Source: Escherichia coli
GTDB taxonomy: Bacteria; Pseudomonadota; Gammaproteobacteria; Enterobacterales; Enterobacteriaceae
Assembly: GCF_044647545.1 (NCBI RefSeq)
Contig: NZ_CP172818.1
Length of the DNA: 64,000 bases
Reading direction: 5' to 3' (one strand)
Below, in pieces: positions 5,242 through 39,463 of the stretch. The translations under genes were made by a program, and so were the position numbers. Every line of letters begins with the position of its first letter. Position 1 is the stretch's first letter. The notes beneath the pieces were generated by a model. It was not told the DNA's origin. It saw nothing but the letters and a program-made list of their open reading frames with translations, and ran no database searches.

Positions 5242-5289
5242 TTGCCAAAGTAAAACAGTGTAAAAGGTATGTAACAGACCATTGACTGA

Positions 5290-17902: not shown

Positions 17903-18889
17903 ATGGGTCAACTGATTGACGGCGTCTGGCATGACACCTGGTACGATACCAAATCCACCGGCGGTAAATTTCAACGTTCAGCTTCCGCATTTCGTAACTG
18001 GCTCACTGCCGATGGCGCGCCAGGCCCCACTGGCACAGGCGGTTTTATCGCAGAGAAAGATCGTTATCATCTCTATGTTTCACTCGCCTGCCCGTGGGCG
18101 CACCGCACGCTGATCATGCGTAAGCTCAAAGGACTGGAACCGTTTATTTCCGTTTCCGTAGTGAACCCGCTGATGCTGGAAAACGGCTGGACCTTTGATG
18201 ACAGTTTTCCGGGAGCAACCGGCGACACGCTCTATCAACATGAATTTCTGTATCAGCTTTATCTCCACGCCGATCCACACTACAGCGGACGAGTTACTGT
18301 TCCCGTGCTGTGGGACAAAAAAAACCACACCATCGTCAGCAACGAATCAGCAGAAATCATACGCATGTTCAATACCGCGTTTGATGCGCTGGGCGCGAAA
18401 GCGGGTGATTACTACCCACCAGCCCTGCAAACGAAAATTGACGAACTTAACGGCTGGATTTATGACACTGTTAACAACGGCGTGTATAAAGCTGGTTTTG
18501 CCACCAGCCAGCAAGCTTACGACGAGGCGGTGGCGAAAGTGTTTGAATCGCTGGCGCGACTGGAACAGATTTTAGGTCAGCACCGTTACCTGACCGGCAA
18601 CCAGCTAACCGAAGCCGATATTCGCCTGTGGACCACGCTGGTGCGTTTTGATCCAGTGTATGTGACCCACTTCAAGTGTGATAAGCACCGCATCAGCGAT
18701 TACCTGAATCTGTATGGCTTCCTGCGCGATATCTACCAGATGCCGGGAATTGCCGAAACAGTCAATTTCGATCACATCCGTAATCATTACTTCCGCAGCC
18801 ATAAGACCATCAACCCTACGGGGATTATTTCAATTGGTCCGTGGCAGGATCTCGATGAACCGCATGGACGAGATGTTCGCTTCGGTTAA
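17903..18889 (+). CDS. yqjG: Glutathionyl-hydroquinone reductase (Xi-class GST)
   Basis: Start at MGQLIDGVWHDTW gives 328 aa. Confidence 0.9.
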   Translation: MGQLIDGVWHDTWYDTKSTGGKFQRSASAFRNWLTADGAPGPTGTGGFIAEKDRYHLYVSLACPWAHRTLIMRKLKGLEPFISVSVVNPLMLENGWTFDDSFPGATGDTLYQHEFLYQLYLHADPHYSGRVTVPVLWDKKNHTIVSNESAEIIRMFNTAFDALGAKAGDYYPPALQTKIDELNGWIYDTVNNGVYKAGFATSQQAYDEAVAKVFESLARLEQILGQHRYLTGNQLTEADIRLWTTLVRFDPVYVTHFKCDKHRISDYLNLYGFLRDIYQMPGIAETVNFDHIRNHYFRSHKTINPTGIISIGPWQDLDEPHGRDVRFG

Positions 18890-18929
18890 AAAAAGGCACC
18901 TTACGAGGTGCCTCTGATAATTAGCTAAG

Positions 18930-19050
18930 TGCGTGTTGTTCATGTCGGATGCGGCGTAAACGCCTTATCAAACCTACAAAACATTTATATTCAATATGTT
19001 GCAATGACCGCGCAGGCCAGATAAGCGTAGCGCATCTGGCAATTTTGCGC
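18930..19050. repeat. REP element cluster
   Basis: gtcggatgcggcgtaaacgccttatc ... motifs. Confidence 0.6.
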
Positions 19051-19171
19051 TTGCCCTTATCCTTCACAGCGCCTTATTAATTCATCGAGATAATATTTAC
19101 TGCCATTTCATTCACGTCTATTCTTAATTTGCTGCTTTAAAAACAAGTGATTGAGCAAAATTGAGGCAAAA

Positions 19172-19537
19172 ATGGACTGGTATCTGAAAGTACTAAAAAA
19201 TTATGTCGGTTTCCGGGGTCGTGCGCGGCGCAAAGAGTACTGGATGTTTATTCTGGTCAACATCATCTTTACGTTCGTGCTGGGGCTACTGGATAAAATG
19301 TTAGGCTGGCAACGTGCCGGTGGCGAAGGCATCCTGACGACAATCTACGGTATTCTGGTGTTTTTACCATGGTGGGCAGTTCAGTTCCGCCGCCTGCACG
19401 ACACCGACCGCTCGGCGTGGTGGGCACTGCTGTTCTTAATCCCGTTTATCGGCTGGCTTATTATCATCGTCTTTAACTGCCAGGCGGGTACGCCAGGCGA
19501 AAACCGCTTTGGACCTGATCCAAAACTGGAACCTTAA
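19172..19537 (+). CDS. yhaH: DUF805 inner membrane protein
   Basis: Start at MDWYLKVLKNYVGF gives 121 aa; paralogous to the next gene. Confidence 0.8.
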   Translation: MDWYLKVLKNYVGFRGRARRKEYWMFILVNIIFTFVLGLLDKMLGWQRAGGEGILTTIYGILVFLPWWAVQFRRLHDTDRSAWWALLFLIPFIGWLIIIVFNCQAGTPGENRFGPDPKLEP

Positions 19538-19778
19538 AACAAATCTCCTCGCCGGATGTCTGACTCATCCGGCTTTTATCATCATGTTGATGAATGAATA
19601 ATTTACTAATGTTTATTTAAAATATTTCAATATCGTTATATAAATTACCTATAAAAAATAACCATGTATTTATCTTAAATATCAAAACCTTTATAACATC
19701 CGAAAAAGAAAGATACGAATAGCATTTACACAATACCCGGAATAGACTTTCGTCACTTTTAATTAAAGGGATGTTTTT

Positions 19779-20135
19779 ATGCAGTGGTATTTAGCCGTAT
19801 TAAAAAATTATGTTGGTTTCTCTGGTCGCGCACGTCGTAAAGAGTACTGGATGTTTACTCTGATTAACGCCATCGTCGGCGCTATTATCAATGTCATTCA
19901 ATTGATTTTAGGTTTAGAGTTTCCATTCCTTTCTCTCATTTACCTGGCAGCAACAATCATTCCGGTCATTGCTCTGTGCGTTCGTCGTCTGCACGATACT
20001 GACCGTTCAGGTGCGTGGGCGCTTCTCTATCTGGTACCGGTCATTGGCTGGTTAGTTCTGTTTGTATTTGCCTGTTTAGAAGGCAATTCTGGCAGCAATC
20101 GTTACGGAAACGATCCGAAGTTTAGTTCAAATTAA
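19779..20135 (+). CDS. yhaI: DUF805 inner membrane protein
   Basis: 118 aa; shares WY/LxVLKNYVGFxGRARRKEYWMF and RRLHDTDRS motifs with yhaH. Confidence 0.8.
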   Translation: MQWYLAVLKNYVGFSGRARRKEYWMFTLINAIVGAIINVIQLILGLEFPFLSLIYLAATIIPVIALCVRRLHDTDRSGAWALLYLVPVIGWLVLFVFACLEGNSGSNRYGNDPKFSSN

Positions 20136-20145
20136 TCTTAGAATT

Positions 20146-20170
20146 GGGGCGATATTTCGCCCCTTTTTAT
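20146..20170. terminator. Hairpin terminator between convergent yhaI and yhaJ
   Basis: ggggcgatatttcgcccc followed by tttttatt. Confidence 0.6.
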
Positions 20171-20185
20171 TAAAAATAACAAATA

Positions 20186-21082
20186 TTATTTTCCGCTAAA
20201 AAGTTTGGGAATTTCCCGCAGACACCAGGATTTCGCCTCCCCCATACTGTCACGACGCCAGGCCATAATAATATCGATCTCGCTGGTCGATTCCGGGCTG
20301 ACGACACGCAACCGCCCTTCCGCAATATCTTTTTCGACCATCGGATACGGCATCGTCGCCACGCCAAGCCCCGCCAGTAATGCCTGACGTTTATCTTCAA
20401 TCGTGCTCACCGTTAAGCGCGGCTGTTTGTCCAGCAGTTGTACGGTCAATACCGGGCGCTCACGAGCGGTATCCGCCACCGCAATTCCACGATATTTCAC
20501 GCGCGTCACTTCAGATAACGGTTCCGGCTCCTGATGAATCGGGTGATCAGGCGCGGCAACGTAGACGTTCATTAACGTATAGAGCTTGCGCGAGTTGATC
20601 TCCGACGAGGAGCGAAAATGCATATCCGGCGCGATAACAATATCCGCCCGCCCCTGCTCCAGCCGTTCCCACGCCCCTGCCAGCACTTCGGTGATGATTG
20701 CCAGTTGGGTATTGGCTTTTACCGCCAGTTTGTCAATTAACGGGAAAAAGGCAGGTGTCGGTACCAGCGCTTCGGTCACAATGGTGAGATGCGTTTCCCA
20801 ACCGCGCGCGAGAGCTTCCGCATCGGTAGTCAGTTTATCTGCGGCTTCCAGCAAAACGCGCCCTCGCTCCAGCAACATCCTCCCGACATTGGTGAATTTG
20901 GTGCGATGGCCCGAGCGGTCAAACAGCACCACATCCAGCTCTTCTTCCAGTTTTTGCATGGTGTAGCTAAGTGCGGAAGGCACGCGTCCCAGCTCATCCG
21001 CCGCCGCCGCAAAACTGCCCCGGCGATCGATCGCATCCATAACCCGTAGTGCTTCCAGCGTTAATGCCCTTTCTTTGGCCAT
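20186..21082 (-). CDS. yhaJ: LysR-family transcriptional regulator
   Basis: 298 aa ORF with N-terminal HTH. Confidence 0.9.
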   Translation of the reverse strand: MAKERALTLEALRVMDAIDRRGSFAAAADELGRVPSALSYTMQKLEEELDVVLFDRSGHRTKFTNVGRMLLERGRVLLEAADKLTTDAEALARGWETHLTIVTEALVPTPAFFPLIDKLAVKANTQLAIITEVLAGAWERLEQGRADIVIAPDMHFRSSSEINSRKLYTLMNVYVAAPDHPIHQEPEPLSEVTRVKYRGIAVADTARERPVLTVQLLDKQPRLTVSTIEDKRQALLAGLGVATMPYPMVEKDIAEGRLRVVSPESTSEIDIIMAWRRDSMGEAKSWCLREIPKLFSGK

Positions 21083-21186
21083 TTCGTTCTCATTCAGGAA
21101 ATTTGAACATACCGGGCAGAATATCTGGCTAACAATGTAGCGTCCAGCCCCTTACCATAAAAGGAAGTAAAGAGAGGTCAAGAATT

Positions 21187-21888
21187 ATGATTACTACCCG
21201 AACTGCCAGGCAGTGTGGACAAGCAGACTACGGATGGTTGCAGGCCCGGTATACTTTTTCCTTTGGACACTACTTCGACCCGAAATTGTTAGGCTATGCC
21301 TCCCTGCGCGTGCTTAACCAGGAAGTGCTGGCCCCAGGTGCCGCCTTTCAGCCACGAACCTATCCCAAAGTCGATATTTTAAATGTGATTCTGGATGGAG
21401 AAGCTGAGTATCGCGACAGCGAAGGCAATCATGTTCAGGCCAGCGCTGGTGAGGTGTTGCTGCTCTCTACCCAGCCGGGTGTCAGCTATAGCGAACACAA
21501 TCTCAGCAAAGACAAATCGTTAACGCGAATGCAACTTTGGCTGGATGCCTGCCCACAACGAGAGAATCCGCTGATTCAAAAACTGGCGCTTAATATGAGC
21601 AAGCAGCAATTAATCGCCTCGCCAGAAGGTGGGATGGGAAGCCTGCAATTGCGCCAGCAAGTGTGGCTGCACCATATCGTGCTCGACAAAGGCGAAAGTG
21701 CGAATTTCCAGTTGCATGGGCCACGCGCGTATTTGCAATCGATTCACGGGAAATTTCATGCGCTTACGCATCATGAAGAGAAAGCGGCGCTAACCTGCGG
21801 TGATGGGGCGTTTATTCGTGACGAGGCTAACATTACGCTGGTTGCCGATTCCCCACTGCGCGCTTTGCTGATAGATTTGCCTGTCTAG
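21187..21888 (+). CDS. yhaK: Pirin-like cupin protein
   Basis: 233 aa ORF, divergent from yhaJ. Confidence 0.9.
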   Translation: MITTRTARQCGQADYGWLQARYTFSFGHYFDPKLLGYASLRVLNQEVLAPGAAFQPRTYPKVDILNVILDGEAEYRDSEGNHVQASAGEVLLLSTQPGVSYSEHNLSKDKSLTRMQLWLDACPQRENPLIQKLALNMSKQQLIASPEGGMGSLQLRQQVWLHHIVLDKGESANFQLHGPRAYLQSIHGKFHALTHHEEKAALTCGDGAFIRDEANITLVADSPLRALLIDLPV

Positions 21889-24645: not shown

Positions 24646-24893
24646 TTACCGAAAGCGTCAAAGAAAATGCTTATCTTATCGATCCAAAAATTAATTACAA
24701 TACAGATTTAAACATAGAGGATTCTAGCTCAGAGGAATTCCTTTCAGATAATACACTAGAGAAAGACGAAAATTCTCCTGACAATTGCTTTGAGGTCGTA
24801 AAATATAACACATATGAAGCTTATAACTCAGAGAAGCAATATTTTACCAGAGAGGACTATACGTATGATTACGACCTTTTAAATGCAATATAG
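24646..24893 (+). pseudogene. AT-rich 3' gene fragment, possibly the end of yhaC
   Basis: In-frame translation ...ENAYLIDPKINYNTDLNIEDSSSEEFLSDNTLEKDENSPDNCFEVVKYNTYEAYNSEKQYFTREDYTYDYDLLNAI*; position just upstream of the rnpB terminators; identity to yhaC not verified. Confidence 0.3.
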
Positions 24894-24949
24894 ACTTAAT
24901 AATTTCTTACAAAGTCTATTATTAATACCGTAGATATTTATTCATCTTA

Positions 24950-37947: not shown

Positions 37948-38820
<873 letters not shown>

Positions 38821-38986
38821 TCATTAGTTTTTTATGATTTATCCCAATGTACTTCCCGATTAATATCGGGGAGTGCCTTAATGGAAAAGGAGATGACTAA
38901 ACCTTAATAAATACATAAGTACAATATCGCAACAATAATATATTTAAAAAAATTATATTATTCAACTTTATGGTGAGGATTACACA

Positions 38987-39463
38987 ATGAGCAGTCCAAA
39001 TATTCTCTTAACCCGTATTGATAACCGTCTGGTTCACGGTCAGGTTGGCGTGACCTGGACATCCACCATCGGTGCGAATCTGTTGGTAGTCGTGGATGAT
39101 GTTGTCGCTAACGATGATATTCAACAGAAATTAATGGGTATTACCGCAGAAACCTACGGCTTTGGCATTCGTTTCTTTACTATCGAAAAAACCATTAACG
39201 TCATCGGCAAAGCTGCACCGCATCAGAAGATCTTCCTGATTTGCCGTACGCCACAAACGGTACGTAAATTGGTAGAAGGTGGTATTGACCTGAAAGATGT
39301 CAACGTCGGCAATATGCATTTCTCGGAAGGGAAAAAGCAAATCAGCAGTAAAGTTTATGTCGATGACCAGGATCTCACGGACTTACATTTTATTAAACAA
39401 CGTGGCGTGAATGTTTTCATTCAGGACGTCCCTGGCGATCAAAAAGAACAAATCCCTGACTAA
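38987..39463 (+). CDS. agaB: PTS galactosamine-specific EIIB
   Basis: 158 aa ORF; paralogous to agaV (LxRIDxRLxHGQVG N-terminus). Confidence 0.9.
   Translation: MSSPNILLTRIDNRLVHGQVGVTWTSTIGANLLVVVDDVVANDDIQQKLMGITAETYGFGIRFFTIEKTINVIGKAAPHQKIFLICRTPQTVRKLVEGGIDLKDVNVGNMHFSEGKKQISSKVYVDDQDLTDLHFIKQRGVNVFIQDVPGDQKEQIPD

Follow-up and report, generated by a model that had tools for sequence, protein, structure and literature searches.

The locus analyzed here raises the question of how two genes for related membrane proteins, yhaH and yhaI, came to lie head-to-tail in Escherichia coli with a strongly AT-rich stretch of DNA between them, and of what this stretch may do. The window, i.e. the whole analyzed stretch of 64,000 nucleotides (contig NZ_CP172818.1, assembly GCF_044647545.1), exhibits the E. 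coli gene order yqjF-yqjG-yhaH-yhaI-yhaJ-yhaK-yhaL, with yhaJ encoded on the opposite strand, and the 1.5 kb surrounding the pair find matches in 5,423 of the 5,426 complete E. coli genomes. We regard it as probable that the two genes form a DUF805 pair in which yhaI is an H-NS-silenced accessory cassette, acquired by recombination and mosaic in its sequence.

A sequence-only reading of the region had described a tandem pair of DUF805 genes and proposed an alignment of the two proteins as a check. The description holds. The ORF of yhaH (19172-19537, + strand, beginning with the RefSeq ATG) encodes a 121-aa DUF805 inner-membrane protein and that of yhaI (19779-20135, + strand) a 118-aa DUF805 inner-membrane protein, here in the version that we call the window-type haplotype. 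Both match the Pfam family PF05656 (profile length 111, cut-off 25.7 bits; YhaH: E-value 4.5e-35, score 120.9 bits, positions 1-111; YhaI: E-value 2.5e-31, score 108.9 bits, positions 1-110), and BLASTP aligned the two proteins with 63/121 identities (52%) at an E-value of 2e-44. The shared motifs quoted in the earlier reading are present in both proteins, except that YhaI reads RRLHDTDRSGAWALL where the motif was given as ending in xWWALL. All 19 invariant columns of a 40-sequence DUF805 alignment are found in YhaH as well as in YhaI; the signature residues of the family comprise an N-terminal W..Y..F.GR..R.E.W.F pattern, an RR.HD loop and a C-terminal N..G..P pattern. Since both genes have long been annotated in E. 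coli, the pair as first described is already known and in itself adds nothing new.

The structural predictions agree with the assignment of both products to a widespread family of small inner-membrane proteins, which would have three helices. The AlphaFold2 model of YhaI (pLDDT 89.6) reveals an N-terminal amphipathic helix, three helices of membrane length (residues 20-44, 50-73 and 78-99, the third kinked at Pro87) and a C-terminal β-hairpin; according to the positive-inside rule, the N-terminus and the RRLHD loop would be cytoplasmic. We found neither a solved structure nor an informative fold match for the DUF805 pair. An old label of YhaI, "putative cytochrome", was rejected, as the protein exhibits no significant similarity to a cytochrome family.

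From the shared motifs the earlier reading had concluded that the pair arose by duplication. The homology and the common membership in DUF805 stand, but the step to a local duplication does not: the motifs are invariant or nearly so in the 40-sequence alignment, which includes proteins from Firmicutes, Actinobacteria, Bacteroidota and Proteobacteria, and they are thus a signature of the whole family that does not demonstrate a local event. In comparisons with its relatives, the YhaI protein of E. coli shared 54-56% of its residues with YhaH, 56-61% with members of DUF805 from Streptomyces, Haemophilus and Exiguobacterium, and 60-65% with proteins of 119 aa encoded by Citrobacter amalonaticus, Superficieibacter electus and Intestinirhabdus alba. 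The genes of these last three occupy the same position, directly before yhaJ, and their GC3 is lower than that of their neighbors, as is that of yhaI (0.42 vs 0.56-0.61 in the adjoining genes). In C. amalonaticus the yhaI-type gene is preceded by a yhaH orthologue and in S. electus by two further DUF805 genes (three in tandem); the I. alba locus lacks yhaH and has the yhaI-type gene on its own.

A local tandem duplication of yhaH that made yhaI in this lineage, leaving the spacer as diverged intergenic sequence that acts as a curved, H-NS-silenced promoter, would agree with the adjacency, common orientation, common family and 52% identity of the two genes, and the tandem triplet of Superficieibacter indicates that the family has expanded at this locus. 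We nonetheless consider it unlikely. Recent tandem duplicates should also be each other's closest relatives, which YhaH and YhaI are not, as DUF805 proteins from other phyla resemble YhaI at least as closely as YhaH does. In neighbor-joining trees the YhaH clade received a bootstrap value of 91% and the YhaI-type clade 24%, but the sister grouping of the two only 6-18%. The dS between yhaH and yhaI is saturated and their GC3 differs by 0.19. The position-matched yhaI-type genes in three other genera imply that any duplication predates these enterobacterial genera. It appears more likely that E. coli acquired its yhaI by recombination than that the gene arose at this site.

Genomes that lack the gene bear on this origin. 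Alignment with the locus of an O25b:H4 (ST131) genome, where a single DUF805 gene lies between yqjG and yhaJ, delimits a presence/absence cassette of 652 bp (19533-20184, + strand) that comprises the last two codons and the stop of yhaH, the yhaH terminator, the AT-rich spacer, yhaI and the yhaI terminator. Genomes without yhaI have 40 bp instead, which encode a different YhaH end (...KLEQE vs ...KLEP) and a strong hairpin (-17 kcal/mol, z-score -7.6). This yhaI-less junction occurs in 992 of the 5,426 complete E. coli genomes (18%) and the cassette in about 80%. E. marmotae and Escherichia sp. E2562 exhibit the same ...KLEQE end and, with few substitutions, the same hairpin, and in the Salmonella and Klebsiella loci that were examined yhaH is followed directly by yhaJ, with no yhaI. 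A peptide-pattern scan of the GTDB species representatives identified no E. coli-like yhaI (best matches at most 57% identical), a result that is to be read with the design of the scan in mind, which requires exact 8-mers and for this reason missed the 60-65% identical enterobacterial orthologues. The distribution of yhaI among close relatives is thus patchy, as for horizontally acquired genes. yhaH, on the other hand, is conserved across Enterobacteriaceae (orthologues in Salmonella, Klebsiella, Citrobacter and Enterobacter are 73-88% identical), the window strain, K-12 (b3103) and STEC strain 2013C-4538 have one and the same YhaH protein, and the published dN of yhaH is 0.00017.

On the simplest reading of these loci, the yhaI-less state looks ancestral within Escherichia; the direction of gain or loss is argued by parsimony from a small number of outgroups, and a single old loss with lineage sorting, or the entry of a yhaI-less allele into B2 strains, would agree with the data as well. 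That the yhaI-less junction has a sequence of its own, common to sister Escherichia and the 992 E. coli genomes, also speaks against the local duplication discussed above. The cassette, i.e. yhaI with its AT-rich promoter and both terminators, missing from O25b:H4/ST131-like strains and sister Escherichia, would most likely have entered by homologous recombination via the flanking yhaH and yhaJ, with an enterobacterium that already possessed the yhaH-yhaI-yhaJ layout as the donor.

The opposite polarity was considered as well, namely that the two-gene state is ancestral in E. coli and in Escherichia, that a yhaI-less deletion or replacement arose once and was spread by recombination among B2-like E. 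coli and other Escherichia species, and that the yhaI haplotypes described below are an old balanced polymorphism. The presence of the yhaH-yhaI-yhaJ layout in at least two other genera and the evidently frequent recombination at the locus are in line with this scenario, which we nevertheless find improbable. The sequence at the yhaI-less junction is not contained within that of the two-gene state but has 40 bp of its own, with a strong hairpin, and two further species of Escherichia retain these 40 bp with some substitutions, which fits vertical descent. The absence of an E. coli-like yhaI from the GTDB species representatives points in the same direction.

The preferred reading, recombination into a yhaI-less background, is extended by the structure of yhaI itself. 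Between the window and K-12 the gene differs at 2 bases in codons 1-45, at 54 bases in codons 46-103 and at 1 base in codons 104-118. The hyper-divergent segment (codons 46-103, 173 bp, 19914-20086, + strand) spans the end of the TM1-TM2 loop, TM2, the conserved RRLHDTDRSG loop and TM3; its nucleotide identity is 69%, with dS 1.68, dN 0.21 and dN/dS 0.12, while the dS of its flanks is 0.035 and 0. The YhaI proteins of the window and K-12 (b3104) are 84% identical, and only three of their amino-acid differences lie outside codons 46-103; the 17 changes within this segment are hydrophobic swaps that leave the RRLHDTDRSG loop unchanged. The dN/dS ratio shows that both versions are under purifying selection. 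The window-type segment is present in 2,291 and the K-12-type in 2,081 of the 5,426 complete genomes; together with the 992 yhaI-less genomes they account for 98.9% of the total. O157:H7 has the K-12-type gene. A recombinant allele exists (P0004), and among strains the yhaI types occur in shuffled combinations with the variants of a polymorphic REP-rich region that lies upstream of yhaH.

The pattern looks like import from a distant yhaI and not like rapid diversification: a later recombination event would have exchanged codons 46-103 for a version of genus-level divergence, giving rise to the two common haplotypes. Purifying selection on both is also what would be seen in functional alleles maintained for a long time, as the balanced-polymorphism part of the scenario above proposes, but there a gradual decay of divergence into the flanks would be expected, whereas the dS of 1.7 is limited to 173 bp with sharp borders. 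Gene conversion from yhaH was rejected as the source of the segment, which in either haplotype is only 49-55% identical to yhaH. Among 240 retrieved proteins no donor of either haplotype was found outside E. coli and Shigella. We also rejected phase variation at a T7 run of the K-12-type allele as a major feature, since only 4 (T6) and 11 (T8) of 2,082 complete genomes deviate from T7. Frameshifted YhaI proteins were seen in 345 and 190 contigs of a large collection, which may include assembly errors. The RefSeq gene name yhaI is given to the K-12-type allele only, so pan-genome counts based on gene names would under-report the gene. As far as the literature searched here indicates, neither the cassette polymorphism nor the mosaic haplotypes have been described before, and we see in them the added value of this analysis.

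The spacer between the two genes (19538-19778, 241 bp) has a GC content of 0.278, the mean of the window being 0.522; among all stretches of 241 bp in the 64 kb, only 0.1% are equally AT-rich. The spacer holds seven runs of A or T of 4-6 bases each. The sequence-only reading, which had called it strongly AT-rich with A/T tracts, is borne out in this respect, with the qualification that the first ~40 bp are not AT-rich and contain a GC-rich terminator hairpin (19551-19573). The terminator scan identified there the intrinsic terminator of yhaH (19551-19577, + strand), with an 8-bp GC-rich stem, a 7-nt loop and a UUUU tail (RNA fold -15 kcal/mol, z-score -4.4; none of 200 shuffled sequences folds equally well). 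Because this terminator occupies the start of the spacer, the AT-rich part is reduced to ~200 bp (19578-19778, + strand, ~25% GC), which from its composition and from the literature we presume to be the regulatory region and promoter of yhaI and the site of H-NS binding and nucleation. A second intrinsic terminator (20146-20168, + strand; hairpin 20146-20163 followed by UUUUU, -16.3 kcal/mol, z-score -4.1) lies between yhaI and the convergent yhaJ. The hairpin after each gene and the Shine-Dalgarno sequence AAGGGA before yhaI (19766-19771, + strand, read from the sequence) make two separate transcription units the best explanation, and, like the proposal of which it is a part, we hold it to be probable; yhaH is the conserved enterobacterial gene and is closed by its own terminator.

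A strict sigma-70 scan of 18850-20250 reported no promoter match. A loose scan identified a candidate weak core promoter of yhaI (19719-19748, + strand), with a -35 element ATAGCA, an 18-bp spacer and a -10 element TAGACT (19743-19748), a score of 7/12 and a predicted transcript start near 19755. In the aligned upstream regions, the candidate position is occupied by ATGACC/TATATT in C. amalonaticus, ATGACA/TATGTT in I. alba and CTGCCA/TATACT in S. electus, all better -35/-10 pairs than that of the window and equally far from the start codon. From this alignment, 19719-19748 is likely to be the core promoter of yhaI. The ribosome-binding region is likewise conserved in the four-species upstream alignment, and the proximal upstream DNA of the yhaI-type genes in the three other genera is also AT-rich. 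The entire 241-bp spacer of the window differs at only 3 bases from K-12, and likewise from STEC strain 2013C-4538. The suggestion that the spacer is curved was not borne out: a periodogram of AA/TT at 9.5-11.5 bp does not rise above shuffled sequences (p = 0.6), and this lack of 10-11 bp A-tract phasing also weighs against the curved promoter invoked with local duplication. A search of 18000-21500 against Rfam (E-value up to 1) reported sub-threshold matches only, all outside the spacer, and thus no known RNA there. Four small ORFs of 21-38 aa in the spacer were discarded, as all are without support.

The proposal that the yhaI promoter is silenced by H-NS has indirect support in published data. 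In the ChAP-seq study of Higashi et al. 2016, the coding region of yhaH was scored as overlapping with DNA bound by H-NS in one or more of the strains K-12, SE11 and SE15 (PMC4720273, S2 Table), while yqjF and yhaK were scored as H-NS-unbound and yhaI is missing from the core-gene table (PMC4720273). In EHEC, the H-NS antagonist Ler activates yhaI 36-fold, which makes it the strongest Ler-activated gene outside the LEE (PMC3891560). From the H-NS-bound yhaH and the Ler effect we infer that H-NS acts on the yhaI promoter. The supplements of two H-NS studies contain no yhaI entry and no value for it in an hns mutant, and the YhaJ ChIP supplement does not list yhaI. An H-NS high-affinity motif (TCGATAAATT) is represented in the spacer by just one site with 2 mismatches, which is uninformative.

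A second input is suggested by the overproduction of CpxR in K-12, upon which yhaI rose 3.2-fold when measured on arrays and 40.3-fold when measured by qRT-PCR, and yhaH 1.9-fold (PMC2731931). By pattern search we found a CpxR-box-like site, ATAAACATTAGTAAA (19602-19616, - strand), one mismatch away from GTAAA-N5-GTAAA; since it lies ~140 bp upstream of the predicted transcript start, a role for it would be a weak inference of uncertain relevance. The 64-kb window contains 9 such one-mismatch sites vs 3.1 expected by chance. Many of the new targets in the CpxR study are without a box (PMC2731931), and the effects of both Ler and CpxR on yhaI could be indirect. According to our proposal, the ~200 AT-rich bases would keep yhaI largely silent through H-NS, and the silencing would be relieved when an H-NS antagonist is present, as Ler is in EHEC, or when the Cpx envelope-stress response is active. 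For Salmonella, repression of yhaH by the sRNA SdsR and a rise of the YhaH protein in stationary phase have been reported (PMC5137417).

It could be argued instead that the spacer plays no regulatory role, that yhaI is in decay with essentially no expression and that the AT-richness reflects mutational drift of non-functional DNA, given that the gene is dispensable (missing in 18% of genomes), that frameshifted alleles exist and that its core promoter is weak. We regard this as extremely unlikely, for the frameshifts at the T7 run affect just 15 of 2,082 complete genomes, the segment dN/dS of 0.12 and the near-invariance of the spacer across haplotypes are contrary to decay, the ribosome-binding site and the promoter position are conserved across genera, and yhaI can be induced 36- to 40-fold.

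The function of both proteins had been called unknown in the sequence-only reading. This needs amendment for YhaH, which is now reported to be an inner-membrane factor needed by the Stephanstirmvirinae phages PhiWec188 and PhiWec190, whose infection is restored by yhaH complementation (preprints bioRxiv 10.1101/2024.11.29.626071 and 10.1101/2025.02.05.636633). Neither YhaH nor YhaI matched a PADLOC defence family at an E-value of up to 0.01. Both match PHROG 12855, a phage "moron" family of membrane proteins, and in the Stx phages 75/02 and POCJ13 we found a DUF805-like ORF that is not annotated. One may speculate that yhaI, as a paralogue exchanged laterally and silenced under normal conditions, encodes a protein that interacts with YhaH at the inner membrane or takes its place and so modulates YhaH-dependent phage infection, that phage pressure keeps both the presence/absence polymorphism and the two TM2-TM3 haplotypes, and that Cpx or Ler switches the gene on. 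The occurrence of DUF805 genes as phage morons and on plasmids would be in line with this reading, which we consider very unlikely.

Three known systems offer themselves for comparison. With its AT-rich promoter, its patchily distributed low-GC gene, reported H-NS binding at the locus and strong activation by Ler, yhaI resembles LEE-type H-NS silencing and Ler anti-silencing. It differs from the LEE in that its unit is one 118-aa gene, without an island and not on a mobile element, and in that K-12, where CpxR overproduction induces it, has no Ler. Deeply dimorphic or mosaic loci that result from recombination between lineages are a general phenomenon in E. coli, and yhaI shares with them the sharp borders, a dS that is nearly saturated inside and near zero outside, and recombinant alleles, although only 173 bp of a small inner-membrane protein are involved and no surface antigen. 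The mannose permease ManYZ is an inner-membrane factor used by phage lambda. YhaH is likewise comparable to phage host factors of the inner membrane such as the N4 factor NfrB, listed in the YhaH preprint, in that it resides in the inner membrane and its loss blocks two phages; the likeness is that of YhaH alone.

What emerges at the level of the population is a small, presumably silent membrane gene, inducible by Cpx or Ler, that only four-fifths of E. coli possess and whose haplotypes are as different as the genes of separate genera, adjoining a paralogue that two phages need. The polymorphism of yhaI may therefore offer a handle on DUF805, a functionally uncharacterized family that counts tens of thousands of members.

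The interval between yqjG and yhaH (window positions 18933-19092) holds REP/BIME-like repeats, which differ from those of K-12 by clustered SNPs and by an indel of 10 bp. The Rfam family naRNA4 gave a weak match within it on the minus strand (18938-18974), whose 27.6 bits fall short of the gathering score, 59.5. Among strains, the type of the yhaH upstream region and the type of yhaI (window-type or K-12-type) occur in shuffled combinations, and this pattern of sequence types points to frequent recombination at the yhaH-yhaI locus. The sole 100%-identical match to window positions 18900-20400 comes from strain EC19 (NZ_CP182182.1, 662564-664841), where it is found in two pieces with an IS1 element inserted between them.

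The K-12-type yhaI contains a run of seven T residues (gene nt 286-292; positions 3676-3682 of L001, a locus with a K-12-type allele), which is absent from the window allele. Frameshift variants of this run were found among 2,082 complete genomes, with T6 in 4 and T8 in 11 of them, while in a large collection the frameshifted proteins of 139 aa and 131 aa are present on 345 and 190 contigs, respectively.

YhaH of E. marmotae (119 aa; L093:2501-2860, from one assembly) lacks the QFR of the VQFRRLHD motif, which is conserved elsewhere, and may represent a defective allele in this assembly. Superficieibacter electus possesses a tandem array of three DUF805 genes (L091:2619-4360; 145, 122 and 119 aa), with a 464-bp spacer upstream of the yhaI-type gene, in which GC-rich REP-like repeats give way to AT-rich sequence in the proximal portion. 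A yhaI-like DUF805 gene is also borne on plasmids (L088:4001-4360, and likewise at loci L089 and L090); its product (P0120) exhibits 61% identity to the window YhaI, and its GC3 is 0.33. A Wzz-like gene lies 76 bp upstream of it, and the flanks of the yhaI-like gene carry two genes for CaiF/GrlA-family regulators, together with an integrase of phage type and a Rep3 replicase. Additionally, two Stx phages contain an unannotated DUF805-like ORF (Shigella phage 75/02 Stx, KF766125.2, 16349-16693; POCJ13, KJ603229.1, 16337-16681), which shows 40% identity to YhaI (E-value 2e-14) and fits the PHROG 12855 family of "moron" membrane proteins.

Elsewhere in the 64 kb, 241-bp segments with a GC content of at most 30% occur only at 24682-24929 and 38730-39019. 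CpxR-box-like sites are enriched in the window (9 observed versus 3.1 expected); they include a perfect one, GTAAAACAGTGTAAA, at 5250-5264, and two overlapping sites with one mismatch each in the yhaJ-yhaK intergenic region (21157-21181).

Among the matches listed, the RefSeq/PGAP annotation assigns the name yhaI to K-12-type alleles, and the window-type alleles are named solely "DUF805 domain-containing protein". Since the name is thus confined to the K-12 type, a tally of yhaI by gene name would overlook about half of the genomes that carry the gene.
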